Positions 1-31,954 are shown, counted from the first letter of the stretch. The stretch: DNA of 64,000 bases from an uncultured Nitrososphaerota archaeon (GCA_964635675.1 CAZWPT010000045.1:79691-143690), one strand, 5' to 3'. The notes: a model not told the origin generated them from the sequence alone. Program-made: numbers and translations.

Positions 1-358
1 TGACATAGCGGTTCTCAGGCAAATAGCCGACTTAATCGCAATCATGTACGCAGGCAAAATAGTTGAGCTGAGTTCTACTGATAACGTGCTATACAACCCC
101 AAGCACCCATACACCACCGGATTGATCAACGCTGTTGTCACTCCTGAACCCGAGGTCAGGAGGCGGGGAATCGTTTCAATAGCTGGCGAGCCGCCGAATC
201 TTTTGAAGCCGCCTAGCGGGTGCCGCTTCCACCCGCGTTGCAAGTTTGCAATGGATTTATGTTCGAAAGAGGAGCCCCCCCTATTAGAGGTAGGAGACAA
301 AACTCTCGTAGCATGCCATCTTTTCTCCTCAAAGAGGGAGGATAAGGTTGCTTCTTGA
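1..358 (+). CDS. ABC transporter ATP-binding protein of the oligopeptide/dipeptide family (OppD/DppD-like), C-terminal fragment. The 5' end lies outside the window.
   Basis: The translation ends with the Opp/Dpp-type C-terminal domain (NPKHPYTTGLI ... CRFHPRC ... C). The reading frame is open to the window edge. The stop overlaps the start of the next ABC ATPase gene. Confidence 0.8.
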   Translation, partial: DIAVLRQIADLIAIMYAGKIVELSSTDNVLYNPKHPYTTGLINAVVTPEPEVRRRGIVSIAGEPPNLLKPPSGCRFHPRCKFAMDLCSKEEPPLLEVGDKTLVACHLFSSKREDKVAS

Positions 359-1139
359 AGTGAACAACCTGACTAAGGTTTTCACCGTCGGACTGCTTAG
401 GAAGAAGGAAATAGTTGCCGTAAAGGACGTGACGTTTCAAGCGACCCCCGGCCAGTTCATATCTCTAGTGGGGGAAAGCGGCTCCGGAAAGACAACGACG
501 GCAAAGATAATTCTGAAGCTGCTTCCACCAACCTCTGGCCAGATACTGTTTGAAGGCAAGGATGTAACCAGGCTTCGGAAGCATGAGGAGCTAAGGGAAT
601 ATTGGCGTAAAGTACATGGTATTTTCCAAGACCCGTATGCCTCCTTCAACCCCCTTCAGAAGGTGGATAGAGTACTCTATCAAGCTTTTGAACTCATGGA
701 CGATAAGGATATCAATAAGGATAGGGTTGTTCGCGAGGCATTAAGGGAGGTCGGCCTTAACTGGGATGAGGTGTTGGGTAAATATCCGCATGAGCTCAGC
801 GGCGGGCAGAGGCAGAGGATCATGGTAGCCAGATGCTACATGATTAAGCCTAGACTCATACTGGCTGACGAGCCTGTCTCGATGATAGATGCTTCCACCA
901 GGAAGAGTGTTCTCCAGCTCTTCACAAACTTAAGGGACGAGTATAAAACTTCAGTCATATTCATAACCCACGACCTAGGCCTAGCCTACTATGTTAGTGA
1001 CGAAATAATCATAATGTATAGGGGCGTGATAGTGGAGAGGGGGCCGCCTGAAGAAATATTGGAGCACGCGCGTTCAGAGTACACTAAAAGACTCAGGTCT
1101 GATGTCCCGCTTTTGTATAAGAAGTGGGAGGGCTTTTAG
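348..1139 (+). CDS. ABC transporter ATP-binding protein (OppF/DppF-like)
   Basis: Walker A is GESGSGKTT, the ABC signature is LSGGQRQR, and Walker B is LILADEP. The start overlaps the preceding ATPase gene, which is typical for a D-F pair. Confidence 0.9.
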   Translation: MLLEVNNLTKVFTVGLLRKKEIVAVKDVTFQATPGQFISLVGESGSGKTTTAKIILKLLPPTSGQILFEGKDVTRLRKHEELREYWRKVHGIFQDPYASFNPLQKVDRVLYQAFELMDDKDINKDRVVREALREVGLNWDEVLGKYPHELSGGQRQRIMVARCYMIKPRLILADEPVSMIDASTRKSVLQLFTNLRDEYKTSVIFITHDLGLAYYVSDEIIIMYRGVIVERGPPEEILEHARSEYTKRLRSDVPLLYKKWEGF

Positions 1140-1202
1140 CCACAGGCCGTGACCAGCCTACCGCAAAGCTTTTAAATTTGACCAAGACAAATCGAGTATA
1201 GG

Positions 1203-2216
1203 TTGAACCCATTACTCCGGTACATTGCCAGGCGCGTTGCATTTCTCTTAACAACCTTCTTTGCCTTCCTGCTTATAATATTCGCCTTGCCGAGAGCAAT
1301 ACCTGGAAACCCGCTCGCCCAGATTCTCTACCGCATGTTTCAACAGGCACAGACAAACCCGGACCTTGTTCAGGCGGTTTACAAACAGCTTATGGAGGAG
1401 TTCGGCATAGGAAAGCCGTTACACGAACAGATGATAGAGTTCTTCACCAGACTGCTTCAGGGAGACCTAGGCACTTCTATAGCATTCTACCCCAGAAAGG
1501 TTGCTGACCTAGTTTTCATCTACCTGCCCTGGTCCCTTGGGCTATTAATACCTGCCACGCTCGTCTCCTGGATCCTTGGTAATCTTCTAGGCGCTTTAGC
1601 AGGCTATAAAAGAAAAACCGCGGTTGACAACGCTTTGTTAACGGTTTTTCTAACGCTTTCCCAGACGCCTTACTATTGGCTTGCGATGATCCTGCTCTAC
1701 GTGTTTGCCGTGACTTTCAGAGTGTTTCCACTCGGCGGAGCCTATAGCAAAGCTCTCATGCCTTCTCTCACCTTAACATTCATAATGAACTTCTTATATC
1801 ATTACGTGCTTCCTTTCTTCTCCATAGTCCTCGCCGCCATAGGTGGCTGGGCCATCGGCATGCGCTCAATGGTGATTTACGAGCTTGGAGCAGATTACGT
1901 GAGCTATGCTGACTCACTGGGCTTATCGGACAGCAAAATGTTAAGATATATTTTTAAAAACTCGATGCTTCCTCAAGTAACTGGACTAGCCTTAAACTTT
2001 GGAACGATTCTCGGCGGCTCTCTAATAACGGAGCTGGTCTTCAGCTATCCGGGCACCGGTTATCTTATATTCAGGTCGCTAAGTATGCTTGACTATCCTA
2101 TGATTCAGGGGACATTCATACTGCTTATATCAACTTTGCTGCTTGCAAACTTCATAGTTGACCTGATATATTCTTATATCGACCCTAGAATAAGGACAGG
2201 CTATGCTACTAGTTGA
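1203..2216 (+). CDS. ABC transporter permease (DppB/OppB-like)
   Basis: The N-terminus (MNPLLRYIARRVAFLL) is typical of DppB. The protein is polytopic and carries an EAA-like loop region. It sits in an operon with the ATPases and the substrate-binding protein. Confidence 0.85.
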   Translation: MNPLLRYIARRVAFLLTTFFAFLLIIFALPRAIPGNPLAQILYRMFQQAQTNPDLVQAVYKQLMEEFGIGKPLHEQMIEFFTRLLQGDLGTSIAFYPRKVADLVFIYLPWSLGLLIPATLVSWILGNLLGALAGYKRKTAVDNALLTVFLTLSQTPYYWLAMILLYVFAVTFRVFPLGGAYSKALMPSLTLTFIMNFLYHYVLPFFSIVLAAIGGWAIGMRSMVIYELGADYVSYADSLGLSDSKMLRYIFKNSMLPQVTGLALNFGTILGGSLITELVFSYPGTGYLIFRSLSMLDYPMIQGTFILLISTLLLANFIVDLIYSYIDPRIRTGYATS

Positions 2217-2330
2217 AAACTCTGTTACCTCTGTTACATGTTGAGGATTGAAAGTACGCGCGTGCTGTTTATATGGATATTTTATAGAAGAAAAAGCTTA
2301 AATAGTGCTTTCCAATATTCTAACCGATGT

Positions 2331-4292
2331 AAAATGAAAGGAAGAATATTCTCATTGTTCCTGCTGTCTTTCATATTGCTTCTGAATTTTCTCCCGTTCA
2401 AACCCATAAAAGCCCAACAAACGTTTCCAAGGGATCAAACGGTCTACATCTCTTCGCCCTGGTCCATACCCGGTTGGAACCCGACGATGAGTGACACGAA
2501 CTGGATGACCCAGATTCAATACCCGACTTTTTACCTATACAATCTTTTCACGGATGAGTGGATTCCGTACGCTGCCTCCGCCTATACGTGGGTTGACAAA
2601 TATACCTTAGAGGTAAAGATAAGGACTGAGGCGAAGTGGTGGGATGGTAAACCTGTGACTGCCGATGATGTAATGTATACTTGGGAGCTGGGAAAGAGGA
2701 TGTTTGTTCCCTTCATAACCCCATTCTGGGATTACTTGGAAGAAGTTGTAGCTATCGACTCTAAAACGGTGCATTTTAGGACGAGTGAGAAGAAACTAAA
2801 CTACTTCCAGTTGCTAGGCGTCCTGCAGCAAATAATTCTGCCAAAGCATAGATGGGAAACGCTGGAAGCAAGATATGGTAAGAAGCTTACGACCGATTTC
2901 AGGGATGATAAGCCAGAGGACATAATTGGGGCGGGTCCATATAGAGCTTACACGGTTTCGGAGTCGAGTTTCTCATACATAAGAGTCGACGACTGGTGGG
3001 GGAAGGACATATTTGGCATTCCAAATCCCAAGTACGTGGTTATATGGATACCCAAGGACAACGTGGCCGCAGCTTTAGCATTTGAACAAGGAGAACTTGA
3101 CTACATGACTCATTTCACTCCCAAGATATGGGAGATGTGGGAAGTTAAGAAGTTGCCAGTAAGGACCTACTACGCGCGTCCTCCGTACTATGTTGGCGGA
3201 GGAGTTGTTTTCCTCTGGATGAACTATAAGACAAAGGGATTGGACAACCCGACGGTTAGAAGGGCCATAGCACACGCGTTGAACATAAGCGAGATGATAG
3301 AGAAGGCCTACTACAACTATGGTTTACAGGCTAAGCCGGTCCCCATAATACACACTAGTGCTGCCGCCATATACATCAATGAATCGCTAATAAGTAACTA
3401 CGGATGGTCTTTTAACATTGAGAAGGCTAAGAAGATACTTGATGACGCCGGCATAAAACCGGGTCCCGATGGCATAAGGAGGCTGCCTGACGGCACAAAG
3501 CTTGGTCCATACACCATACAGGTTCCATATGGTTGGACAGATTGGATGATGATGTGCGATATGATAGCCTCAAACCTCAAGGCAATAGGGATAGAGGTTG
3601 AACCAGTATTTCCAGACTTCTCCGTTTGGTGGCAACGCTTAACCGAAAAGAACTGGGATATGGTCTTAGGATGGGCTGACGCTTCGCCTGGCTATTCTCA
3701 TCCATGGAATGCTTTCAGGTCAACGATGGACCCGAGGCTAAGCCATCCGTCTGGTAATTGGGAGAACTATAACAACCCTGAGGTTACCACTCTTATCGAT
3801 GCGCTTCCCGTAGAGACAGATCCCGCAAAAATAAAGGCTATTTATAATAAGCTGCAGGAAATATGGTTAAAAGACATACCTGGAGTACCGCTCTTCTATG
3901 GTGCATCGTGGTATGAGTATTCCGAGGCCCACTGGGTCGGCTGGGCCAACGAGGAGAACAAGTTCTGGTTCCCTCAGGCCTGGAACTGGCCTTCCAACAT
4001 GCCAATATTCTTCAGAGTAGTGCCGAAGGGTCAAACGCCAAAGGAAGTTCCTTGGGTCGAGACAAAATTTCCAACCAGCAAGATACTTGCAGACCTGGCA
4101 GCTGCTCCAGTCCATGGACTAGTAACCGTGACGAGAACCGTTACGGAAACCGTGGTTCAGACGGTTGCGACCACCGTCACGACCACGCAAACCGTCCCGG
4201 CTTTCGACGTGGTTAGCGCTGGAGGCATAGGAGTAGTAGCCCTAGTAATAGGAGTAGCGGTTGGCTGGCTAGTCGCCTCTAGAAAGAAGTAG
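2331..4292 (+). CDS. ABC transporter substrate-binding protein of family 5 (OppA-like). It has an N-terminal signal peptide, a C-terminal Thr/Val-rich linker and a TM anchor.
   Basis: The ORF in the track runs 2238..4292. The likely true start is the internal ATG at 2331 (MKGRIFSLFLLSFILLL, a signal peptide). A family-5 SBP core follows. The C-terminus (TVTRTVTETVVQTVATTVTTTQTV, then a hydrophobic helix, then SRKK) is the archaeal membrane-anchored SBP type. Confidence 0.85.
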   Translation, partial: KMKGRIFSLFLLSFILLLNFLPFKPIKAQQTFPRDQTVYISSPWSIPGWNPTMSDTNWMTQIQYPTFYLYNLFTDEWIPYAASAYTWVDKYTLEVKIRTEAKWWDGKPVTADDVMYTWELGKRMFVPFITPFWDYLEEVVAIDSKTVHFRTSEKKLNYFQLLGVLQQIILPKHRWETLEARYGKKLTTDFRDDKPEDIIGAGPYRAYTVSESSFSYIRVDDWWGKDIFGIPNPKYVVIWIPKDNVAAALAFEQGELDYMTHFTPKIWEMWEVKKLPVRTYYARPPYYVGGGVVFLWMNYKTKGLDNPTVRRAIAHALNISEMIEKAYYNYGLQAKPVPIIHTSAAAIYINESLISNYGWSFNIEKAKKILDDAGIKPGPDGIRRLPDGTKLGPYTIQVPYGWTDWMMMCDMIASNLKAIGIEVEPVFPDFSVWWQRLTEKNWDMVLGWADASPGYSHPWNAFRSTMDPRLSHPSGNWENYNNPEVTTLIDALPVETDPAKIKAIYNKLQEIWLKDIPGVPLFYGASWYEYSEAHWVGWANEENKFWFPQAWNWPSNMPIFFRVVPKGQTPKEVPWVETKFPTSKILADLAAAPVHGLVTVTRTVTETVVQTVATTVTTTQTVPAFDVVSAGGIGVVALVIGVAVGWLVASRKK

Positions 4293-4352
4293 AGAGGCAA
4301 ACCCCCAAAAGGTTTTTTATTTCTATGCTATTTTTCTCCAATAGGGCAGGGT

Positions 4353-4562
4353 GTGAACAGCATGTTCAGAAGGATATTGCTGACGATTCTCGTGTGGGGT
4401 CTTATCCTGGAAATACTGACCCTTATATATCTCCGCGATATGGCTTGGAGGTTTGAATTCGCATACAATCTTTTCCTCCTAATAATAACTTCAATAGCCT
4501 TGCTAATACTTGTGGCAAGGATGAGAAGCGAGTATAGGAGGACGGTGGCTTCGAAAGACTAG
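4353..4562 (+). CDS. small hypothetical membrane protein (2 predicted TM helices)
   Basis: 69-aa ORF with two hydrophobic segments. No recognisable domain. Confidence 0.3.
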   Translation: MNSMFRRILLTILVWGLILEILTLIYLRDMAWRFEFAYNLFLLIITSIALLILVARMRSEYRRTVASKD

Positions 4563-4569
4563 GGTGCTG

Positions 4570-6873
4570 TTAAACCGGCAACCCGAGGGACATGAAGAGG
4601 TCGATGACGACCTTGGGCTTAACCGGGAACCATAAGGCGAACCAAAAAACCTGCGTAATTACGACTAAGGCTTGTAGTAATCTATGGTGTTTCCCTCGGC
4701 TCAGGCAGCCGGATAGGCCGATGTAGAGTCCCGGCAACACCGAGTAGAAGTAAAACGGGTATACCCACCTCGTCATCAGGTATGCGAGCAGAACGTACGG
4801 TAAAAAGCTGGCTAAAACCCATAGTAGAGTGAAAAGAAGCGGCCTCTCGAAACTCCGGCTCCTTATTCCTTTGAATATGTAGAATAGGCTGATGGGTATG
4901 AATACCCATATGCTCCACCAGAGCGGAGTGTAGATGCCGTAGTAGGCGAAAGAATTATATTCTCTCACAACCCCTTCAACCACTTCCCTTGTCGTCAGCA
5001 GGTAGAATGGCATGGGGGAGAATGGTTCCAACGGGTTTACCCACTGTAACGGAAGGATCACGTCCCTAGGGTCTTGATATTTTAAGCTGCTGTGGTAAGC
5101 CAGCATATAGCTAACATGTTTCAAAGGATTCCTGTCAAAGATCGAGTAGTAGGAATCGTATATCCATAGGCCAGTCAAAAATACGACGAGCACAGTAGCC
5201 GCAACCCTCATGCAGGATTTTGCAACATGTTTAAATGAGTTCTCCGAGCCCCCCGCGCTTATGATTAGAAACAGTGCAATGCCAGGATATATAAACAAGG
5301 AACTGAGCTTGCATAAAGAGGCTAGGCCCAGGAAAAGACCGCCCAGATCATGCTTCCCTCTTAAAACAAGTAGGCTCGCAGCAAGTATGAACGCCATAGC
5401 TGGAGCATCAAGAATAGCCATCTGCCCTATGTTGAATGCCATAATGTCGAAAGCGAACAGAATTACGGAGCATAGGGAAACATCTTTTCTGCCGCCCAGG
5501 AGTAAGGCAAGCATATAGATTAGTAGTATAGATGCTAAGCTGGCCGAGATGACTGATGCACGCCAACCTGCCGGGTTATCTCCTAATAGTGCAATACTTA
5601 ACGCGATTAAAAGCTTCGTCAGAGGCGGATGCTCGTTATTCGTCGCCTCGCCGCGAAGCATGTCTCTAGCTGCACTAACGTAATACCTTTCATCAAAGAT
5701 AAGGTCCCAGCTTACCATCCCTCCGGGTGTTTCACGCTTAGGGTATTCGAGAATGGACAGCCTCAGGATCAACGTGAGAGCAACTACGGCTAGCAAAGCC
5801 AGCTCAGGAGTTGCTTTCTTGAAAGAATTCAAAGCCAGCATTCTTCTCTTTATTGTCACGCGGGCCCTAGACACCAGCATCGTGAAACTCTGCCGATATT
5901 TCCCGCAAGTGGACGAAACCGTCTTAACCATGCTTCTCGTGTTCAAAAGCACCAACAGGGCCAGGGTTAGTATCGCCAAGACCATTGACACTGCTTCGCT
6001 GAACAAGTCTAGGAATGATAGATTTGGATGTAAAACCGCGACCAGCCTGTTAGTGTACAGGTAGTGATTAAAATACCAGTGAACCAGAAGGGAGGCGTAG
6101 ATGCCGTAAAGTACGTATGACAGGGCCATAGCAAACCCCTGTATGAACGCTAAGGTGAGCTTTCCAACACCCCAAGCGTTTGGAACCGCGTAGTGCGAGA
6201 AAGCGAAGAGAGCTGAGGAAAAAATAATGGTCACCCATTCGTCATTTTCGATCTTAAAAGATACGGGTAAGCCCCATGATCTTAAAAGCCTCTTCGCGCT
6301 TTCAGGGCTAAAGAATGAGAGTAGAGAAACATTCAGCTTTTTGCGAAACGAAAGGTTGCCGACACCCCTGTTCAGGTAGAAAGAGTAGAAAAAACCCAGC
6401 AGTAGCATTCTGAACACGATCTCCTCCAGTATGGGGGACCAGGCTAATTGAAAGTAGGCTGATATTGGATCCGGGCTTAAGGGTGGGATGCCTGTCGATA
6501 TCTGTAGATTTTTTTGGATCGATTCGATAAGGCTCAGAGCCGTATGAGTTAGGCTCGTGATAACAGGCATAAGCAGCAAGAAATTGCCGCTTGGAAATGC
6601 AACAGGCTCTTGAAGAAATCTGCGTGCCGCTTCTCTGAGGCTTTCTCCCGACTTGAAAGCGAAAACGAAGCATAAGGAATAAATAATTTCAGCAAGTACA
6701 AAGTAGAAGTACCATGATGTTTGGATTTCCGACACTGCTTTCGATAGGCCTTCGGTTAAAATTATACTGATACCTAGAGGAATCGAGAGGAGGCTTAGTG
6801 CAATCAAGACGACAATAAGGATGAATGTAAATGGTTTCAGACACGAATGGGCAGCTTTCAAAGATATGTTCAT
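4570..6873 (-). CDS. Fusion protein. The N-terminal part is a CPBP-family (CAAX/Abi) intramembrane metalloprotease domain. The C-terminal part is a GT-C-fold glycosyltransferase resembling PMT/ArnT-type dolichyl/undecaprenyl-phosphate-sugar transferases.
   Basis: All three CPBP motifs are present: EEIVFR (EExxxR), FAFSH (FxxxH) and HWYFN (HxxxN). The C-terminal 430 aa or so are polytopic and carry a DE-containing first-loop motif (IFDERYYVSAARDM) like GT39/GT83 enzymes. Confidence 0.7.
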   Translation of the reverse strand: MNISLKAAHSCLKPFTFILIVVLIALSLLSIPLGISIILTEGLSKAVSEIQTSWYFYFVLAEIIYSLCFVFAFKSGESLREAARRFLQEPVAFPSGNFLLLMPVITSLTHTALSLIESIQKNLQISTGIPPLSPDPISAYFQLAWSPILEEIVFRMLLLGFFYSFYLNRGVGNLSFRKKLNVSLLSFFSPESAKRLLRSWGLPVSFKIENDEWVTIIFSSALFAFSHYAVPNAWGVGKLTLAFIQGFAMALSYVLYGIYASLLVHWYFNHYLYTNRLVAVLHPNLSFLDLFSEAVSMVLAILTLALLVLLNTRSMVKTVSSTCGKYRQSFTMLVSRARVTIKRRMLALNSFKKATPELALLAVVALTLILRLSILEYPKRETPGGMVSWDLIFDERYYVSAARDMLRGEATNNEHPPLTKLLIALSIALLGDNPAGWRASVISASLASILLIYMLALLLGGRKDVSLCSVILFAFDIMAFNIGQMAILDAPAMAFILAASLLVLRGKHDLGGLFLGLASLCKLSSLFIYPGIALFLIISAGGSENSFKHVAKSCMRVAATVLVVFLTGLWIYDSYYSIFDRNPLKHVSYMLAYHSSLKYQDPRDVILPLQWVNPLEPFSPMPFYLLTTREVVEGVVREYNSFAYYGIYTPLWWSIWVFIPISLFYIFKGIRSRSFERPLLFTLLWVLASFLPYVLLAYLMTRWVYPFYFYSVLPGLYIGLSGCLSRGKHHRLLQALVVITQVFWFALWFPVKPKVVIDLFMSLGLPV

Positions 6874-7205
6874 CTTAGCTTATTATCCGGCAAATTATTA
6901 ATGAGAATGCCAAAGTTTAAAAGCATTACGGCAACGCGTGCAGACTCAGGGTTAGTCAATAGTTTAAGTCCCAATGCTCATCCTCCTCGCAGAAGCCCGG
7001 GATGGGAGGCTAGTTTTCAACATTTCCCCAAAACACCCTTTACCTTTAAGACGGGTTCTCTTTCATTTCTCTTCAAATTAGTCTAGGGGAAACGGGTTGA
7101 AACACTTCGGTTAAGCGTGGCGAGGAGCGTTGAACAATGCCTTGCTTAAAGTTTGAGATGATTTTACGGAGTAGGCTAACATTAACACTTGGTGACCAAT
7201 ATAGC

Positions 7206-8614: not shown

Positions 8615-10812
8615 ATGGGGACAGGCTTGGAATGGTGGAGAAAACCCGTTAGAATGATGAGGCTCGACTACTTGGATGCTCTAAGCAGGATGGCTGAATC
8701 AGACATGGATAAGCTGGCCCGGTGGAAAAAGGAGGAGTGGAATATTAACTGCGAATGGGTGATAGGGACCCCGGGGACAGCTCCGGGCCTAGGCTACTTG
8801 ACGACTTTCAACACGCCCAGGTTTGAGAAGTATCCTGCTCTAGGCGACTTCGACCTGGTAAGGGAGTACTTGCCCCGCGCTAGGAAGCACGGCATCAGGG
8901 TCCTAGCGTACCTGAACATGCACTGGTACTCGTACGAGTTTGGACAGAAGCATAGTGATTGGGAGCAGCGTGTCGAGGACGGCAGGAGCTATGGGAGGGT
9001 GCATCCGCTCTACGGCTCCGGGACAACGTTCTGCGTAAACTCGGGGTGGAGGAACTGGGCGTTCGAACTTATAGAGGAGGCTATGAAAACAGGTATTGAC
9101 GGGGTTTTCCTAGATGGACCGGTCGTCTTCCCAGAGTGCTGCTACTGCAAGTCATGCCGGGAAAAGTTTTCAGCAAAGTATGGCGGCGAGGCTCCCAGCT
9201 GGGAAGACTGGTCTAACCCTCTCTGGAGGAAATTCATAGAGTTTAGAGAAGACTCCATGGCGGAGTTTCTCAGGGATGCTCGACGAGCTGTTAAGAAAGT
9301 GAACGAGAAGGGAGTCATATTTCTAAACGGCGGGGCCTGGTGGCCCGGCAGCTGGAGGGTTGCACGCAACATTGAAAAGCTGAGCGAGCATGAGGATTTT
9401 AACGGTGCAGAGGCTTTCTTCCACCCTGGTTCTCAAAACGTGCCTTTAATCTTCTGGGCGCTTGAAGCCAAGCATCTCGCCGCCAAAGGCAAGCCGGCGG
9501 TCGTCTTCAGCCATCACGCGTTGGGCAGCTGGCACTACGTGCCCCTCCCCCGTTTCGAGGCCGAGATCTCGGTTGCGCAAACCGTCTCCTGCGGGGCAAA
9601 CCCCTGGTTCGCCGTCTTCGACTATGCTTTAGACACTAGGCTGGAGGATGCTCTAACCCCTATGAGAAACATTCTAGGCTTTCTGTCAAGAAACGAAGAG
9701 TACTATGTGGACACTGTTTCGAAGGCTGAAGCAGCCCTGCTGCTCTCTTACAAACCTCCACGTTCTACCTTTCTGAACTCAGGGAACTCTACCTTGATCC
9801 GGGGACTGGTGTTGAGAGAGACCTTAAAATAGAGGAGGGCACAGGCCGGAGGACAACAGACCTGAAAGCGAGGAAAGCCGTGTGCGACGAAGTCTACACT
9901 AACTCCATCCTGGGCGCGGCAACCATTTTAAGTCGTAACCATGTTGCGTACGACATAGTTCTAGACAACGCTCTGGTCAACGGTGAGCTGGAGAAGTACT
10001 CTCTACTGGTTCTTCCAAACTCTGCCTGCTTGAGCGATGAACAGGTCCGCGGCATCCAGGGTTTCCTCGGAAAGGGCGGAAGCCTTGTCTGCTCCTTTGA
10101 AACAGGCTGCTACGATGAGTATGGCAACCATAGGCTTGAAAACCCGCTCTGGAGCATTCTCGGCATAGAAGAGTGCGACGGCATGATGCTTCCCAGAGTC
10201 GGGGAGGAATACATGAAGCTCTCTGACTCCGCCGGGGGAATCTTCTCGATCCCCCCTGGCGCGTTGATACCTAGGCCAGTGTACAGTCTCAAAACCCTTC
10301 CGAGAGAAGATGCTGTAGCACCATGCTTCTTCATGAAACCGATAGGTGCCTACTACACTGCTCCCAAGGGTGTTTCAAAATATGCTGCGATCGTTTGCAG
10401 CCGTCACGGCAGGGGTAGAACGGTCTACTTCTCCTCGCTGATTGAAGACTTTTACACCAGGTACAGGATGCCTGACATCTCAAGGGTTTACGCTGACTGC
10501 GCTAGGTTTGCAATAGGCAGGCCGCCGGTTGTGGAGGTTGAAGCTCCGGAGACTGTGCAGTTCGAAGTCAGAGAGCAGAGAAGCACCGGGAGAATACTAG
10601 TCCACCTTGTTAACACCACTGGGGACATGCAGAGGCCGGTTTCAAGCATAACCTGTGTGCACGGCATTAAGGTTAGGACCAGGGGGATCCGGCCTAGGAG
10701 AGTGTTTAAGCTTAGCGATGGAAACATGCTTGCTGGGCGAGAGCTTTCAGACTGTTTCGAATTCACTCTGGATAATCTGATGGTTTACGACGTGATCGTC
10801 TTCGAGTTCTAA
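8615..10812 (+). pseudogene. GH42-family-like glycoside hydrolase (beta-galactosidase or exo-beta-glucosaminidase-like) split by a frameshift into two ORFs, 8615..9832 and 9880..10812
   Basis: The first ORF has TIM-barrel GH features and a Cys cluster (CCYCKSC), the CxCxxC pattern of the GH42 Zn site. The second ORF has the GH42 trimerisation-like domain (AYDIVLDNAL ... YSLLVLPNSACLSDEQ ... GGSLVCSFETG). Frame 1 is open from 9730 and overlaps the frame-2 stop at 9830-9832. The only in-frame start codon for the second part is the GTG at 9880. Confidence 0.55.
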
Positions 10813-24494: not shown

Positions 24495-25715
24495 ATGCGC
24501 TTACGCCTGCCGAGCATGGTTGAAGTCCAGTTCCCATTCGTTCTAATCAGGACTAGAATCGGGCTGACACTAATGGATAGAATTGGGGAAACCCGGTTCT
24601 CCAAGAGAATGGGGCTTATCTCCCTAGTGGTAATGCCGTTCCTAGGAGCGGTAATGGTTTACCTGCTGCTTAATGCGATAAACAATATGCTGAGCAACCC
24701 CAGCGTTAGCAGAGTTTTAAGGGAGCTCGGACCCGCTGCCAACATTCTTCTACCAGGCGTAAACCCATACCTGCCTGTTTTCTACGGTTGGGTGGCGCTG
24801 CTCATAGCCATGGTAATTCACGAGTATGCGCATGGGACTCAGGCTAGGGCTAACGGCATGAGTGTAAAGTCTACCGGCTTAGTCCTGTTTCTAGTAATAC
24901 CTGTCGGCGCTTTCGCAGAGGTTGATGAGAAGCAGCTTGAGGAAGCTGGGCTTGAGAAAGCTGGTAGAATCCTATCCTCAGGCCCCGTTTCCAACGTCAT
25001 CGCTGCTTTAGCCGCGCTAGCCGTTTTCATACTTCTAATGCTCACTTTGAAGCCGGTGGTCAACGGGGTTCTCGTAGTTGGAATCTCCATAAACGGGTCG
25101 GCTTACCAAAAAGGAGTGAGGCCTGGCGACATAATAATAGGTGTGGACGGTGAGCCGACGCCCGACTGGAATAGTTTTGTCAGAGCTGTTGAGAACGTTT
25201 ACAAGCAGGGGGGAAACGTAACATTCAGGGTTTCACGGAACGGTTTTCCAAACTATACGTTCACGATAGGGAGCAACCTTAGCTCCAGCGGAATACTTAG
25301 CTTGGTTCCGCTTAAAGATGTTCTCAAGAACTATTCCCTAGCCTTTGCACGCTCGCCTCTTGAAGGCCTCGTAACATACCTTATGATACCTACAGTACCC
25401 TTTCCATGGGTTTACGAGACAATACCGTTTTCAAGCCTTCTTCAAAAATACTATGTCTCAACAATTCTAGGTGAGGATTATCATTATCCTGTGAACCTTT
25501 TTTTCTGGGTCTGGTTTGTAAACCTGAACCTCGGGGTTTTTAACGCTCTCCCTCTTTATCCAATGGACGGCGGGGTCTTCTTCAAGCTGTTCTGCAGGAA
25601 AAAGCTTGGCGGCAGAGTGAGCATTGGGACTGTTGATAAAATGGTTTACGCTGTAAGCCTAGCCCTATTAGGACTTATAATAGGAATGATAATTTTGCCC
25701 TACGTATTCGGATGA
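24495..25715 (+). CDS. site-2 protease (M50 family intramembrane zinc metalloprotease) with an inserted PDZ domain
   Basis: The HExxH is HEYAHG. The PDZ domain is RPGDIIIGVDGEPT. The LDG-type motif is NALPLYPMDGG. Confidence 0.85.
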   Translation: MRLRLPSMVEVQFPFVLIRTRIGLTLMDRIGETRFSKRMGLISLVVMPFLGAVMVYLLLNAINNMLSNPSVSRVLRELGPAANILLPGVNPYLPVFYGWVALLIAMVIHEYAHGTQARANGMSVKSTGLVLFLVIPVGAFAEVDEKQLEEAGLEKAGRILSSGPVSNVIAALAALAVFILLMLTLKPVVNGVLVVGISINGSAYQKGVRPGDIIIGVDGEPTPDWNSFVRAVENVYKQGGNVTFRVSRNGFPNYTFTIGSNLSSSGILSLVPLKDVLKNYSLAFARSPLEGLVTYLMIPTVPFPWVYETIPFSSLLQKYYVSTILGEDYHYPVNLFFWVWFVNLNLGVFNALPLYPMDGGVFFKLFCRKKLGGRVSIGTVDKMVYAVSLALLGLIIGMIILPYVFG

Positions 25716-26972: not shown

Positions 26973-27040
26973 GTTTCCGAATGTCTTTCACCGGATTGTT
27001 AAAAACTTAAAAATTCTATTCTTCTCTCAGAACTTAAGTC

Positions 27041-27823
27041 TTGCTCCAGGCGCGTGACGAATGCTTAGGAAACGGGGTTCTGCTGAATATTGAGGATCTC
27101 TGGAAGAGCTATGGGGAAACAGTAGGCGTAGCAGGCTTATTTATGAAGGTTAACTCCGGGAGTATTCATGGCCTAATAGGTCCAAACGGGGCCGGTAAGA
27201 CAACCACCGTGAAATGCGTAGTCGGCCTTCTCAAGCCGGACAAGGGGAGGATAATGGTCATGGGCAGGGATGTTAAAAGCGACGAGGGCTTCAAAAGGCT
27301 CATCGGATACTTGCCTGAAACCCCGTCTCTCCCAGACTATCTTACCCCCAGGGAGTTTCTAGGGTATGTCGCGAGAATCAGAGGGGTTGAACCCGGGGAG
27401 GAGACTAGAAGAAGGGTTCATGAGTTTCTAAGCATGTTTGAGCTTAACGATTGTGAAAACAGGTTTATCCTCGAGCTTTCAAAAGGCCTGAAGCAGAGGC
27501 TCGCCTTAGCAACAGTATTCATTCACCAGCCTAAGCTGATAATAATGGACGAGCCTTTCATCGGCCTAGACCCCGAGGGCCAGCGCCTCGTGAAAAACCT
27601 TGTTAAAGACATTGTTGGCGAGGGTGGAGCCGCGCTCGTGTGCACGCACATGCTCGACATGGCTGAAAGATTCTGCACCAGCGCCACAATAATAAACAAG
27701 GGTAGAAGCATAGCTGAAGGCTCTATAGACGCGCTTAAGAGAATCGTGGGGCTAGAATCCTCAGGGACGCTGGAGGAAGCCTTCTTCAGAATAGTTGGGG
27801 GGACGAGGGGTGGAGGGCTCTAG
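27041..27823 (+). CDS. ABC transporter ATP-binding protein (ABC-2/CcmA-like)
   Basis: Walker A is GPNGAGKTTT, the signature is LSKGLKQRL, and Walker B is IIMDEP. The start codon is TTG. Confidence 0.9.
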   Translation: MLQARDECLGNGVLLNIEDLWKSYGETVGVAGLFMKVNSGSIHGLIGPNGAGKTTTVKCVVGLLKPDKGRIMVMGRDVKSDEGFKRLIGYLPETPSLPDYLTPREFLGYVARIRGVEPGEETRRRVHEFLSMFELNDCENRFILELSKGLKQRLALATVFIHQPKLIIMDEPFIGLDPEGQRLVKNLVKDIVGEGGAALVCTHMLDMAERFCTSATIINKGRSIAEGSIDALKRIVGLESSGTLEEAFFRIVGGTRGGGL

Positions 27824-30317
27824 GCTCCTGCAAATATTCTTTTTCAAGCTTCTCCAGTATTACGGGCCGTTGAGGAGAAGCCTTTCAGTAAAGTTTTCCA
27901 CAATCATGTTTTACTTCATCATAGTTTTCTCATCACTTTTCAGCGGGTTTTTCATAAGAGTGTTCTACGGTTTCTCCGGGATGAGTGAGAAGGAGCTTGT
28001 TAACATAGTTTCAATAACTTTTTCAAGCGTGATAGCCATGGGTGTTTTCCTAGGCCTCAAAGGCGGGATAACGGCGCTTGAACCGGAAATAGATTTCGTC
28101 TTAACATCCCCCATTAAGCCGTCGACGTACCTTGTGGCAGACCTGCTTTTCCAATTCTTCTTCCTAAACTTCGCAGTCACACCGCCGCTGGTTTCCTTCA
28201 TGGCTGTAATGCTCCATCCTCGCTTAAACATTCTGCCGGCTGTCTTCCTATCCTATGAAACCATGCTTTTCGCCTCTTCCATAATAGCCCAGACGCTGGG
28301 GATTCTGAAGAGCATTATGAAGGATGTTGAAGTGGAGGCTGTGGGATGGACTATCCTCATGATACTCTTCACGCCCCTGATAAGCATGGTCATGGGGCTC
28401 GGGCTGAACTACTCTGACCTGCCTTATCCTTCAACACTGCTGGCTAAATGCTCCCTCGGCTCTATAGGAAGCTTGGAAAGCATCATAGGGTTGGCCTACA
28501 TGGTTTTGATTGCCGGCGGCTATTTTTCTGTGATGAGGATTAATTTCCTTCCGAACGTTACCCCCCTGCTAACCACGGCATTAATGGAGATGCCTTCAAG
28601 CAGCCGGAGAATACTCAGATGGGTGCCGAGACTATTTACACAGATACTTTCGCCTAAAATGAGTGAGAAACCAATGGCTCTAGTCGTTAAGCTGAATCTC
28701 CTGAGAATACTGAGGGACGGCAGTCTTTTCACAGCCATCATGCTTTTCGCAATCGCCACAGTATCCAATTTAAGCTTCCCGATTCTAGTCAGGCAGTTTA
28801 GATTCTTCGCTCTGGCAGCCTTAACCTTCAGCATACTCTACACGCCTCTAATCCCAGCGATCTTCTCGATAAACTGGGGTATAATAGAGCGTGAAACCCT
28901 TTGGACGGTGGCGGTCTCGGAAAAAGGGTTCCGGAGATACGTGAAGGGCATGCTTACGGCATACTTTATAGCAACCTTTAGCTTCGCCCTTGTTTTCTAC
29001 AGTATTTTCAGCATTCTTTTGGCTGGAACACCTTTCCTAGTGCTGGATTTCCTGCTCCTGTTGTCTGTGACGCTCTTCTCATCCATACTTTCAGTAGCTA
29101 CAGCACTAGTTTTAAGCAAGCCTTCCAACGCGCTTTCCCTCAGCGCACTACTATACGTTTTCATACCGTTGTTCGGAGCAGTATTCCTCTCAATGCCCGC
29201 AATAATTGCGAGAACCACGATCAGCATTGCAGACACGCCCCCGCCCACGATAATCCTCATACTGGTCTCCTACACGATCCTAATCGCCTTCCTGCTGGCT
29301 AAGTACACGCTCGCAAAGTCAGGAACGTTCTTCAGCCAGGCTCCTGTTGAGAAAGCTTCTCCGCCACCACCTCCGGAACTCCGAGCACAATACCGCGTAG
29401 ATTACAGGAATTACTTGTTGAACTTTTCGACACTGGCTTCGTCAATACTTCTTGTTGTAAGCCTGATCGGGCTATTTCTCGGAAAACCTGAAGCGGTTTC
29501 ACCCGGCAAGTCCGACTTGGAAAGATTGGTGTACGGCCCAGCCTTAGCGGGGTTAACAAGCCTAGTGCTTGCGACATCAATCCTTCTCCAGATGAAGACA
29601 GCAAACCAGGCTGGTGAGAAAGCCTTGTACGAGGCTCCTCGCAACGTGCCCTGGAGAGCGTCACAGTCCTTCCTCATGCTGGTTCTAGCAATGTTTCTCC
29701 CGGCTGTCTTAGAACTACCCTTTCTAGCATTCTCTCTTTCAAAAGGCTTGAGCATTGATGATTTATCACTGCTCGTAATAGGAGAGGCTGCGATGATAAT
29801 TCCCGTGCTGCTCTACATGGTTAGCAAGAAGATAAGTTTAGCATTCCTCGGATTAGACTCGCAGAGCGCCCTGCAGGAGTATAAAGTAGCGCTGCTGATC
29901 CTGCCTTTAACCGTGTTAACAGGTATTTCAGCCGGAGTGATCGTTGAGACTCTAATACCGGTTCCACCATGGTTTGAAGAGTTTTTTCAAATACTCTCGC
30001 CCTCCTCGTTCACAGAACTAGTTACGCTCTCTATAATCACGATTCTCGTCGTCGCTCCTTGCGAGGAAGTCTTGTTCAGAGGATTTATACAGCGGGGCTT
30101 GGAGTCGAGCCTTGGAAGCAGGGGAGGAATACTGTTGTCGTCACTCCTTTTCGGGGTTTTCCATCTGAACCCCTGGCAATTTCTTCCTGCTTTCCTACTT
30201 GGAGCTATACTCGGATACGTTTCCAAGAAAAGAGGCTACAGGCTATGGTGCCCAATAGCGCTGCACGCCTCCTACAACGTTGCACTATTCGTCTTAAACT
30301 ATGTTTTAAGCGTCTAG
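27795..30317 (+). CDS. large polytopic membrane protein: an ABC-2-type permease-like N-terminal region fused to a C-terminal CPBP-family (CAAX/Abi) intramembrane protease domain
   Basis: The gene overlaps the ABC ATPase gene, or starts shortly after it if the true start is the ATG at 27906. About 650 aa of hydrophobic helices come first. An intact CPBP motif set follows: EEVLFR, FGVFH and HASYN. Confidence 0.7.
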   Translation: MGGRGVEGSRLLQIFFFKLLQYYGPLRRSLSVKFSTIMFYFIIVFSSLFSGFFIRVFYGFSGMSEKELVNIVSITFSSVIAMGVFLGLKGGITALEPEIDFVLTSPIKPSTYLVADLLFQFFFLNFAVTPPLVSFMAVMLHPRLNILPAVFLSYETMLFASSIIAQTLGILKSIMKDVEVEAVGWTILMILFTPLISMVMGLGLNYSDLPYPSTLLAKCSLGSIGSLESIIGLAYMVLIAGGYFSVMRINFLPNVTPLLTTALMEMPSSSRRILRWVPRLFTQILSPKMSEKPMALVVKLNLLRILRDGSLFTAIMLFAIATVSNLSFPILVRQFRFFALAALTFSILYTPLIPAIFSINWGIIERETLWTVAVSEKGFRRYVKGMLTAYFIATFSFALVFYSIFSILLAGTPFLVLDFLLLLSVTLFSSILSVATALVLSKPSNALSLSALLYVFIPLFGAVFLSMPAIIARTTISIADTPPPTIILILVSYTILIAFLLAKYTLAKSGTFFSQAPVEKASPPPPPELRAQYRVDYRNYLLNFSTLASSILLVVSLIGLFLGKPEAVSPGKSDLERLVYGPALAGLTSLVLATSILLQMKTANQAGEKALYEAPRNVPWRASQSFLMLVLAMFLPAVLELPFLAFSLSKGLSIDDLSLLVIGEAAMIIPVLLYMVSKKISLAFLGLDSQSALQEYKVALLILPLTVLTGISAGVIVETLIPVPPWFEEFFQILSPSSFTELVTLSIITILVVAPCEEVLFRGFIQRGLESSLGSRGGILLSSLLFGVFHLNPWQFLPAFLLGAILGYVSKKRGYRLWCPIALHASYNVALFVLNYVLSV

Positions 30318-30392: not shown

Positions 30393-30572
30393 TCATCCTG
30401 CTACTGGTTCAAAAAGATCCTTGCCTGCTCCGCAAACCGGGCAAACCCATTCCTCAGGAAGCTTTTCGAAAGGTGTTCCCGGTGGGACCCCGGAGTCAGG
30501 ATCCCCTTCAGAAGGATCGTAAACATATCCGCATACAGTGCACCTGTATTTTTGCGAAGCACCTGTCGCCAT
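30393..30572 (-). CDS. rubredoxin
   Basis: The manual reverse-strand translation is [59 protein letters not shown] (59 aa). It carries both CxxCG knuckles and the aromatic core. The ORF track missed it because it falls below the 60-aa cutoff. Confidence 0.85.
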
Positions 30573-30715
30573 TGCAGGCTTCTAATTCACCCGGATTTCT
30601 TATTTAAACCTTGCGAGGTGATATTCAAAATGTTTCACGATATTGAGATGTGTCGAGAGGGTTGAGGCTGGTTTCGCGAGATATGTTTTTATACAGCTCT
30701 CCTGAAGCTGGAGAC

Positions 30716-31954
30716 ATGGTTCAACTAGCCTTAAAGGGAGGTAGACCAGTCAGGGATAAGCCATTTCCGAAATGGCCCGTCTTCGATGAAAGGGAGCTTG
30801 AGGCTTTGAAAAAAGTTTTGGAAAGCGGCGTGTGGGGCATAGGTGGACAATACGTTAAGCAGCTCGAGGAGAAATTCGCAGCATACCAGCATGCGAAGTA
30901 CGGGGTTGCTGTTACCAGTGGCACAACCGCTCTCGAAATATCTCTCAGGGCATGTGGAGTAGGCTGCGGGAGCGAGGTTATAACAACCCCCTACACTTTC
31001 ATGGCTACTGCAACAGCAATCCTTTACGTTAACGCCATACCGGTCTTCGTCGACATTGAGCCGGATACTTTCAACATTGACCCGCGGAGAATAGAGGAGG
31101 CTGTAACTGAAAAAACAAAGGCAATCCTTCCCGTCCACATAGGAGGCAGGCCGGCTAACATGGATGAGATCATGAGGATAGCGGAGAAGCATGATCTGCG
31201 TGTTGTTGAAGACGCGTGTCAAGCCTGGGGCGCAGAGTGGAGGGGAAGGAGAACAGGGAGCTTCGGCGACTTCGGATGCTTCAGCTTCCAGTCGAGCAAG
31301 AACATTACCAGCGGGGAAGGAGGAATCACGGTAACAAGTGACCAAGAGCTATACGTCAAGGCTTGGAGCCTGCATAACTGCGGCCGCCTCCCTCAGGGAG
31401 CATGGTATGAGCATTATCTTCCCGGTGTCAACTATCGCATGACTGAGTTTCAGGCTGCACTACTGCTCGTTCAACTCGAGAGGCTTGACGAGCATACGAG
31501 GAGACGAATGGATAACGCGAGCTATCTCAATAGCAAGCTCTCTAAAATAGATGGTTTAAAGCCTCTTAAGAATGATGAGAGGATCACCAGGCATGCTTGG
31601 CACCTCTACATATTCAGGTATGACCCGGAGGCCTTCGGAGGAGTATCCAAGGCTGGTTTCGCCGAGGCGATGAAGGCTGAGGGAATACCTGTAAGCGTAG
31701 GGTATTCTAAGCCGCTTTACAGGGAGCCGTACCTCGAATATTTCCAAAAGTGCCCACTGTCCTGCGCATACTACGGTGATTCAATGGATTACTCTAAGCT
31801 AAGTCTGCCTGTGGCGGAGAAGGCTTGTTACGAGGAGGGCTTATGGCTACCGCAGAACGTGCTGCTCGGCTCCAAGGAGGATATGGATGACATTATAGCA
31901 GCGTTTGAGAAGGTTAGAGAGAACGCAGACGAGTTGGGCTCGACATCTAAGTAG
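30716..31954 (+). CDS. DegT/DnrJ/EryC1/StrS-family PLP-dependent sugar aminotransferase
   Basis: GTTALEISL, DACQAWG and FSFQSSKNITSGEGG (the PLP lysine) are present. The ORF in the track starts at 30650. The family-typical start MVQLALKGG is at 30716. Confidence 0.85.
   Translation: MVQLALKGGRPVRDKPFPKWPVFDERELEALKKVLESGVWGIGGQYVKQLEEKFAAYQHAKYGVAVTSGTTALEISLRACGVGCGSEVITTPYTFMATATAILYVNAIPVFVDIEPDTFNIDPRRIEEAVTEKTKAILPVHIGGRPANMDEIMRIAEKHDLRVVEDACQAWGAEWRGRRTGSFGDFGCFSFQSSKNITSGEGGITVTSDQELYVKAWSLHNCGRLPQGAWYEHYLPGVNYRMTEFQAALLLVQLERLDEHTRRRMDNASYLNSKLSKIDGLKPLKNDERITRHAWHLYIFRYDPEAFGGVSKAGFAEAMKAEGIPVSVGYSKPLYREPYLEYFQKCPLSCAYYGDSMDYSKLSLPVAEKACYEEGLWLPQNVLLGSKEDMDDIIAAFEKVRENADELGSTSK

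Follow-up and report, generated by a model that had tools for sequence, protein, structure and literature searches.

The 64-kb window analysed here (the whole stretch of CAZWPT010000045.1, GCA_964635675.1, under study, with positions counted from its first nucleotide) derives from an uncultured hot-spring archaeon of the Brockarchaeota. It carries a pair of overlapping genes, in which an ATP-binding cassette (ABC) ATPase gene is followed by a gene for a large membrane protein, a predicted ABC permease fused to a CPBP/Rce1-like protease. The ATPase gene (27041..27823, + strand) is complete and encodes 260 residues, and TTG 27041 is the sole canonical start codon upstream of the ATPase domain. 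The second gene is an uninterrupted open reading frame (ORF) of 840 codons from TTG 27795 (27795..30317, + strand), the residue numbers of which are used below. Both ORFs and their overlap are as described in the initial annotation, which had left the start of the second gene open between TTG 27795 and ATG 27906. The latter codon (residue 38) is ruled out as the start, since K18, Q21, Y22, G24, and R27, which are invariant even when distant standalone proteins are included, are located upstream of it. Of the two remaining codons, TTG 27795 and GTG 27810 (+ strand), the second is the likelier start, because the N-termini of the orthologs line up with residues 6–8; conservation in their alignment starts at residue ~9. 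Translation from GTG 27810 would give a product of 835 residues and a gene overlap of 14 nt, compared with 29 nt for TTG 27795.

The fusion protein is made up of several segments. Residues 6–515 (27810..29339, + strand), here called the N-module, are predicted to form a 12-helix membrane domain composed of two tandem type V half-domains. They are followed by a Lys/Arg- and Pro-rich linker (residues 516–543; 29340..29423, + strand) with PPPPP at 523–527, which is predicted to be cytoplasmic. Hydropathy places two spacer transmembrane helices at residues 544–562 and 578–596 (29424..29582, + strand), and the low-confidence full-length model places them at 537–562 and 573–605. The CPBP/Rce1-like core occupies residues 621–840 (29655..30314, + strand) and has seven helices equivalent to transmembrane helices TM1–TM7 of MmRce1. 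The proposal that permease and CPBP form one polypeptide is sustained by this single conserved ORF with an ABC ATPase gene directly upstream. The hydrophobic part had been described as spanning about 650 residues; the membrane part is real, but the permease accounts for only ~510 residues, and the remainder comprises the linker, the spacers, and the helices with which the CPBP part begins.

The C-terminal part (C-module) is recognized readily by sequence. PF02517, the sole Pfam match of the fusion, covers residues 742–829 at 76.6 bits, where the cut-off is 22.4, with an E value of 1.9e-21; no C39 or other peptidase domain was found in the fusion by the Pfam scan. The intact CPBP domain read earlier from its three motifs was recovered in full, as motif search located EEVLFR (E757, E758, R762; 30063..30080), FGVFH (H790; 30150..30164), and HASYN (H824 and N828, the oxyanion-hole pair; 30264..30278), all on the + strand, corresponding to the catalytic motifs EExxxR, FxxxH, and HxxxN/D. 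Alignment with 25 relatives shows E757, E758, R762, G763, H790, G803, and H824 to be invariant and N828 to be nearly so, with D in two orthologs. A profile built from the window C-module and these relatives matches one PDB entry, 4CAD (MmRce1), at an E value of 1.6e-9 over its residues 11–260. In this alignment, which runs over TM1–TM7, all three motifs are shared; E757, E758, and R762 are aligned with E140, E141, and R145 of MmRce1, and H824 and N828 with H227 and N231. The catalytic residues of MmRce1 are E140, H173, H227, and N231, plus R145 (PMC5874806). Since the complete MmRce1 catalytic set is conserved, the CPBP part of the fusion is, on the strength of its sequence, very likely catalytically active. 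It differs from MmRce1 in sitting behind a 12-helix ABC domain and two spacers and in having no eighth helix. Additionally, no CAAX-type prenylation system is indicated.

The ATPase belongs to the ABC transporter ATPases, with a PF00005 match at an E value of 5e-29 in the Pfam scan and a full set of motifs, namely Walker A (GPNGAGKT, residues 47–54), signature (LSKGLKQR, 146–153), Walker B (LIIMDEP, 166–172), and the H-loop His203 within CTHM (201–204). The signature, encoded at 27476..27499, is LSKGLKQR and not LSGGQ. A non-canonical S-K-G signature is common to the window ATPase (LSKGL) and to Rv1218c (YSKGN) (PMC11406275). The best NCBIfam match is TIGR01188 drrA (E 2e-58), under the family cut-off; the protein scores well against lantibiotic-protection and DrrA-type models, every such match being below the cut-off of its family. 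Among solved structures, it comes closest to the nucleotide-binding domains of ABCA4, ABCA3, ABCA1, and ABCA7, with E values from 1e-53 to 1e-47, and NosF and Rv1218c are likewise among the best. The ABCA, NosF, and Rv1218c relatives all belong to type V exporters. The ATPase is of the DrrA/ABCA/NosF type and is expected to form a homodimer.

The N-module presents a different picture at the level of sequence. Residues 1–620 of the fusion have no Pfam or NCBIfam match at E <= 0.01, the isolated module has none at E <= 10, and a 36-sequence N-module profile searched against PDB sequences gave no match. Membership in PF16962 (ABC_export, 531 positions) was considered and set aside as resting on a single sub-threshold match that is too weak; the distant standalone protein P0061 (523 residues, and so of similar overall length) is collinear with positions 5–202 at an E value of 2.8e-5, but its 23.2 bits fall under the cut-off of 29.7, and the other 35 of the 36 N-module members scanned, the window protein included, have no match. 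The AlphaFold model of the module, built from 36 sequences, is confident, with a predicted local distance difference test score (pLDDT) of 88.9 and a predicted template modelling score (pTM) of 0.88. Comparison of this model with known structures gave values of 15.1 for NosY, 14.4 for CcmB, 14.1 for ABCG1, 13.6 for ABCG2, 13.4 for PmtD, 13.0 for ABCA4, 13.0 for Cdr1 (311 residues aligned), and 12.4 for Rv1217c (390 aligned). Foldseek returned high probabilities (0.97–0.99 over ~500 columns) for Rv1217c only, and half-length matches to NosY and Wzm. Along the modelled chain, an amphipathic helix precedes a pair of helices, a single short helix, and four more helices, one of them short and external, after which the whole order is repeated. 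Such an arrangement agrees with the description of type V transporters in PMC11406275, and the model has the connecting helix, the six unswapped helices per half, and the coupling helix between helices 2 and 3 that characterize the type V fold. Residues that are near-invariant throughout the family (G86, R299, R302, G304, W356, and W365 in module numbering) fall at or beside three short helices. Judging from the order of these elements, the short helices would be the connecting and coupling helices through which type V transporters touch the ATPase.

Gene order provides a further line of evidence. Directly upstream of the module gene, and overlapping or abutting its start, lies a gene for a homolog of the ABC ATPase, both in the window and in 11 of 11 further loci that carry the module with upstream sequence (L001–L010 and L012), the spacing in L010 being 4 nt. 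Identity to the window proteins falls in step for the ATPase and the module (81/75, 78/63, 64/42, 47/33, 44/26, and 34/27%), which indicates that the N-module is not only encoded beside a cognate ATPase gene but also inherited with it. No CPBP gene was found within ~5 kb of the standalone ATPase plus N-module loci. The N-module is thus predicted, from its modelled fold, to be a single-chain, 12-helix ABC permease of type V (ABC-2-like) and the partner of the ATPase. The initial annotation had called this region permease-like. That view is favoured by the fold, by the upstream ATPase gene, and by the ABCA/NosF/Rv1218c-type character of that ATPase, but the hidden Markov model (HMM) search placed the region in no permease family.

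Conservation is distributed unevenly along the fusion. Across 13 fused orthologs, identity to the window protein is 62–92% in the N-module and 64–88% in the CPBP core, as against 18–64% in the linker, 18–78% in the spacer helices, and 37–87% in the N-terminal helices of the CPBP part. As the N-module and the CPBP core are equally conserved while the linker drifts, they represent two conserved functional modules on a drifting tether, both under selection. Standalone N-module proteins stop at the position of residue ~515–520, and the standalone C-module protein P0143 starts at that of residue ~533; the fusion joint is accordingly placed at residues ~516–543.

Membrane domains of type V begin and end in the cytoplasm. 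The net charge of the segments that follow, expressed as the mean surplus of Lys and Arg across the 13 orthologs, is +1.6 for the linker (predicted inside), −0.5 for loop 563–577 (outside), +3.2 for loop 597–625 (inside), +0.1 for loop 645–657 (outside), +1.3 for loop 677–697 (inside), −1.6 for loop 717–741 (outside), and +0.9 for loop 761–775 (inside). The spacer helices return the chain to the cytoplasmic side ahead of the CPBP core, with an in/out/in charge pattern, and helix parity together with this pattern suggests that the N-terminus of the core is cytoplasmic. In 4CAD, the two termini are on the side away from the mouth of the catalytic cone, with R145 at the cone's base, according to a review (PMC5874806). 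Because the core would start in the cytoplasm and the termini of 4CAD lie opposite the cavity mouth, the catalytic cavity would open to the outside of the cell, provided that the geometry of 4CAD holds and that both spacer helices span the membrane.

The distribution of the fusion was determined by a homolog search of 5.8 billion proteins, which returned 24 full-length protein clusters of 811–840 residues and 54–100% identity, whose source assemblies (JGI, NCBI, ENA, and Logan) are independent, with the linker in frame in every fused cluster. All of the named clusters come from metagenome genomes labelled Brockarchaeota, Thermoproteota, Nitrososphaerota, or Ignisphaera, and their public labels are only CAAX/CPBP protease or 'lysostaphin resistance A-like'. 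The same search gave four proteins of ~505 residues that match the N-terminal 60% only and have no Pfam domain. A second homolog search (family profile, word-indexed) retrieved the same proteins plus one fragment. Moreover, when 1.84 billion representatives were searched exhaustively with a profile, the N-module family proved to have only 62 clusters, nearly all of ~500–535 residues. Its source-named members are all from archaeal metagenome genomes (the lineages include Wolframiiraptor, Caldarchaeum, Methylarchaceae, and Thermoplasmata), and nearly all are annotated as 'hypothetical protein'. Within this family, the fused form is limited to the Brockarchaeota cluster. Each module is found alone in other archaea, and the closest CPBP relatives outside the fused clade are ordinary standalone CPBP proteins of 250–360 residues. 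Homologous fusions, which the initial annotation had proposed to look for, are represented by the 24 archaeal clusters; fusions of the same design but with a different permease occur in Planctomycetota.

Two loci from relatives deserve separate mention. On the 2.9-kb contig L011, the gene for P0143 (237..1154) encodes 305 residues comprising only the spacer helices and the CPBP part, 57% identical to residues 533–839 of the window protein. The gene has an ATG of its own; the 236 nt in front of it are A/T-rich, with in-frame stops and no N-module match. Since its C-module is as close to that of the window (57%) as those of the fused orthologs are (45–59%), P0143 may be derived by secondary fission and not ancestral, or else be a truncated fusion. 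At L012, a separate 248-residue CPBP gene (P0144) had been called, which is a gene-calling error, as tblastn aligns residues 9–836 in one frame; the full fusion is present at 354..2768 (GCA_017601245.1, JAFNJB010000006.1) and is under-called in that Brockarchaeota genome. The fusion had originally been made to depend on a permease-family match for the N-terminal region and on the CPBP part not being a separate gene in orthologs. That test came out half against it, in that no family match was obtained and L011 has a separate CPBP gene, but the fusion stands as a conserved ORF.

A comparable design has already been curated for bacteria. The best-scoring curated model for the CPBP part is NF041647 (ABC_perm_CPBP), which matches residues 621–835 at an E value of 2e-22; the window fusion fails this model, as it scores 79.6 bits where 435 are required and aligns to model positions 422–634 only. 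The gene order is the same, an ATPase followed by a permease-CPBP fusion, although this is a likeness of design and not of descent. For instance, at L013 from Planctomycetota (Phycisphaerae), an ATPase gene (2142–2918, 258 residues) overlaps a fusion gene (2915–5071, 718 residues) whose product has ABC2_membrane_2/3 at residues 9–403 and an Rce1-like domain at 564–648. The permease of NF041647 is a NatB-like ABC2_membrane_2/3 domain of ~400 residues, which can be recognized as ABC-2 and has the size of one half-domain, whereas the N-module of the window has 12 helices, no Pfam match, and no NatB-like ABC2_membrane domain, and hhalign of the two permeases gives a probability of 0.35%. The NF041647 permease family has 6 helices, so that a dimer would carry two proteases. 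The CPBP core of the window is 47% identical to the bacterial one over 59 residues, and outside this ~60-residue core the two are not alignable by BLASTP. As the permeases differ in family and share no significant profile similarity, the archaeal and Planctomycetota fusions look like independent, convergent products, so far as the sequences tell. The literature on ABC-CPBP fusions and NF041647 yielded annotation tables only and no experimental paper for either fusion. What is new is a lineage-restricted archaeal fusion built on an unannotated permease family; the fusion type itself is already curated for bacteria.

The closest structural parallel is the Rv1217c-Rv1218c pump of Mycobacterium tuberculosis, a bacterial drug or lipophile efflux system, in which a single 548-residue chain contains both type V half-domains and binds two Rv1218c ATPases (PMC11406275). 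As is predicted for the window system, it combines two non-identical half-domains in one chain with an ATPase homodimer (PDB 8K1M/N/O). Rv1217c differs in being devoid of a protease, and it shares 9–14% identity and no HMM-level relationship with the N-module. A functional parallel is offered by SagE of the streptolysin S pathway, a CPBP protein believed to strip SagA of its leader, after which the ABC exporter SagGHI takes over (PMC4513790). More generally, links of CPBP proteins with bacteriocin immunity, with the processing of peptides, and with receptor functions have been described (PMC9298176). In the Sag system, protease and exporter are distinct proteins of a biosynthetic cluster, whereas the window has a fused protein and no precursor or modification genes nearby. 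Peptidase-containing ABC transporters (PCATs) have a soluble C39 cysteine peptidase fused to a type IV exporter, in which a peptide is matured and then exported. The window fusion has no C39 domain and is thus not an exporter of the C39 type.

Considering all these features, the locus is best read as a two-gene ABC exporter operon whose membrane domain is tethered to an intact CPBP protease, with both acting on a shared membrane-associated substrate; a probability of roughly 55% is assigned to this reading as a whole. In this scheme, the first ~510 residues would form a pseudo-dimeric, 12-helix type V exporter domain, and two copies of the ATPase would dock on one membrane protein, as in Rv1217c-Rv1218c. 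The cytoplasmic linker and the two spacer helices would tether the CPBP part, giving one protease per transporter. The ABC module would spend ATP on moving or extracting a hydrophobic, membrane-associated peptide or protein segment, and the tethered protease would act on that substrate too, cutting it in the membrane plane, probably at the outer face, so that cleavage could be coupled to export or clearance. If the cavity does face outward, the substrate may be exported or flipped and then cleaved, or it may be cleaved at the outer face and the remnant expelled. Functional coupling of the two activities is argued from the fact that the permease-CPBP pairing seems to have arisen twice.

Several observations weigh against this reading. 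The N-module fits no ABC permease family by sequence, be it ABC-2 or another. Its N-terminal and C-terminal halves give a non-significant hhalign result (probability 1.3%); the sole aligned stretch between them is 19 residues long, DFVLTSPIKPSTYL versus WTVAVSEKGFRRYV, at the equivalent position in each half, and the second-half stretch pairs with ERGTLE..SP of the bacterial ABC-2 permease domain in an alignment that is itself non-significant (0.35%). The full-length AlphaFold model, built from 17 sequences, is poor (pLDDT 60), so that domain packing is unreadable and no view of how the protease sits on the transporter is obtained. The side of the active site is deduced from helix parity and from a review's description of 4CAD. 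The occurrence of the CPBP part as a separate gene in L011 means that covalent linkage is not obligatory. Furthermore, no precursor-peptide, ribosomally made, post-translationally modified peptide (RiPP), sortase-signal, prenylation, or biosynthetic genes adjoin the operon. Synteny of the block around it (M50 protease ... DegT, PRC-barrel, M20 peptidase) extends to diverged relatives, and because the whole block is conserved in this way, the neighbouring genes say nothing specific on function.

The alternative that survives best is one of self-protection or 'membrane hygiene', in which transporter and protease would clear and destroy peptides that insert into the membrane, whether exogenous or endogenous, examples being antimicrobial peptides and the remnants of signal peptides. 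Such a role would need no dedicated substrate gene and would resemble that of ABC-2 immunity transporters and Abi/CPBP immunity proteins, and it fits the lack of adjacent precursor or biosynthetic genes and the position of the locus in a conserved, housekeeping-like block. The high scores of the ATPase against lantibiotic-protection and DrrA-type models are in keeping with it, although every one of them is below the family cut-off. The fold of the N-module is close to that of PmtD, a peptide exporter, and the outward cavity, if correctly predicted, would suit attack on peptides arriving from outside. CPBP proteins have repeatedly been tied to bacteriocin immunity (PMC9298176), yet this immunity is not known to involve a fused transporter. 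By sequence, self-protection is inseparable from an exporter with a coupled protease, and it is regarded as a possible, if tentative, explanation. Owing to the absence of a precursor or biosynthetic gene and to the housekeeping-like synteny, we lean slightly towards a general role for the system rather than a dedicated producer role.

The exporter-protease reading can also be inverted, with the protease as the working part. It is doubtful that the complex is an ATP-dependent machine in which the type V module pulls or flips transmembrane or lipid-anchored segments laterally into the CPBP protease, one that archaea and Planctomycetota would have devised independently; if that were true, partnership with an ABC module would hint more generally at what prokaryotic CPBP proteases do. 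The related idea that the ABC module is no transporter but the motor of an ATP-powered intramembrane protease, pulling transmembrane substrates or presenting them to the CPBP part by the logic of FtsH or of FtsEX and MacB, which are mechanotransmitting ABC systems, is judged unlikely. One protease covalently attached per pseudo-dimeric ABC module, the equal conservation of the two modules, and the emergence of the same pairing in bacteria would all suit a motor, as would the lateral access from the bilayer that type V transporters take (PMC11406275). However, ATPase plus N-module pairs are widespread in archaea with no CPBP gene in the ~5 kb examined, and because such pairs exist without CPBP, the ABC module must be credited with a function of its own, which makes a motor-only role less likely.

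Even less probable is that the CPBP part scaffolds or regulates the transporter without any catalysis, a role proposed for bacterial CPBP proteins such as SpdC/LyrA. Some bacterial CPBP proteins do act without proteolysis, and one ortholog of the fusion is called a 'lysostaphin resistance A-like protein' by NCBI. Against this stands the invariance of E757, E758, R762, H790, and H824 in all fused orthologs and in the aligned relatives, with N828 being N or D, which amounts to the full MmRce1 set (PMC5874806). Lastly, an artefact of frameshift, mis-assembly, or read-through of two genes, which might be suspected from the C-module encoded alone in L011 and the 248-residue CPBP gene alone called in L012, is hardly conceivable given one uninterrupted 840-codon ORF in the window, the same ORF in 24 clusters from independent assemblies with the linker always in frame, and the whole fusion (residues 9–836) in one frame in L012.

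Upstream of the operon, an A/T-rich, TATA-like stretch, TTAAAAACTTAAAAATT, was read from the sequence at 26999..27015 (+ strand), ~30 nt 5' of the ATPase start and inside a 68-nt divergent intergenic region. It is a possible archaeal promoter, from which a leaderless or short-leader operon transcript could arise. A scan for bacterial sigma-70 promoters and terminators was set aside as uninformative for an archaeon. Downstream, domain scans identified a rubredoxin gene on the opposite strand (30393..30572, − strand) and a DegT aminotransferase gene (30650..31954, + strand), the same neighbours as first described. No tRNA genes and no Rfam families at gathering score were found in the whole 64-kb window.

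Further features were observed in the surroundings of this and related loci. The strand that carries the ATPase gene also bears, 0.7–1.3 kb upstream of it, a gene for an M50 site-2-protease-type peptidase with a PDZ domain, at 24495..25715 (+ strand) in the window, 3350–4570 in L004, and 2953–4152 in L006, the orthologous loci showing 57% and 68% identity. The bacterial ABC-2 systems EcsAB (with RasP) and PptAB (with Eep) work with M50 proteases. The linkage may be simple synteny, and the M50 protease was set aside as evidence of a functional partner, the block being syntenic and the standalone N-module loci having no M50 gene. At three loci, a gene for a T2SSE-type ATPase, of the kind that assembles type IV pili or archaella, comes next after the standalone pair (L001 7630–11296, L002 2826–4631, and L003 2661–4466), and L001 also has a T2SSF membrane protein. 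These neighbours, which are absent from the window, might hint at a link with surface-filament biogenesis in those lineages. Glycosyltransferase genes and an RGP-family gene are found near the N-module at 219..2443 of L008, and DegT is found in the window; a glycolipid substrate suggested by such DegT and glycosyltransferase neighbours was dismissed as too thin, since the two contexts are unrelated. At L006, an ortholog locus, a second and conventional ABC-2 transporter pair (an ATPase and an ABC2_membrane_2/3 permease; 8718..10737, − strand) forms an insertion that separates the rubredoxin gene from the DegT gene; the window has no such pair.

The window also contains a second CPBP fusion, as the initial annotation had reported, at 4570..6873 (− strand, 767 residues). 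Its N-terminal ~320 residues are of the CPBP type, with EEIVFR at residues 150–155, FAFSH, and HWYFN, and residues 417–571 match PMT_2/PMT, a dolichyl-phosphate-mannose-type glycosyltransferase. The isolated N-terminal 321 residues match PF02517 at an E value of 2.2e-6 (28.3 bits against a cut-off of 22.4). When the whole 769-residue translation (4570..6879) is scanned, PF02517 is not listed at E <= 0.01, probably because an insertion of ~45 residues between motifs 1 and 2 weakens the full-length match. The joining of CPBP to a polyprenol-dependent glycosyltransferase is an unusual pairing. With two such fusions in the window, CPBP might serve as a portable processing module, as the initial annotation suggested.

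To our knowledge, CPBP/Abi proteases are very common in prokaryotes and their substrates are mostly unknown. The CAAX/CPBP label carried by the public records of the fusion overlooks two thirds of the protein, and the N-module family, which was without prior annotation, is now given a fold and a role. A covalent link between CPBP and an ABC transporter that has apparently arisen twice, with unrelated permeases, would imply that both activities are directed at the same substrate, and it offers a complex that could be reconstituted.

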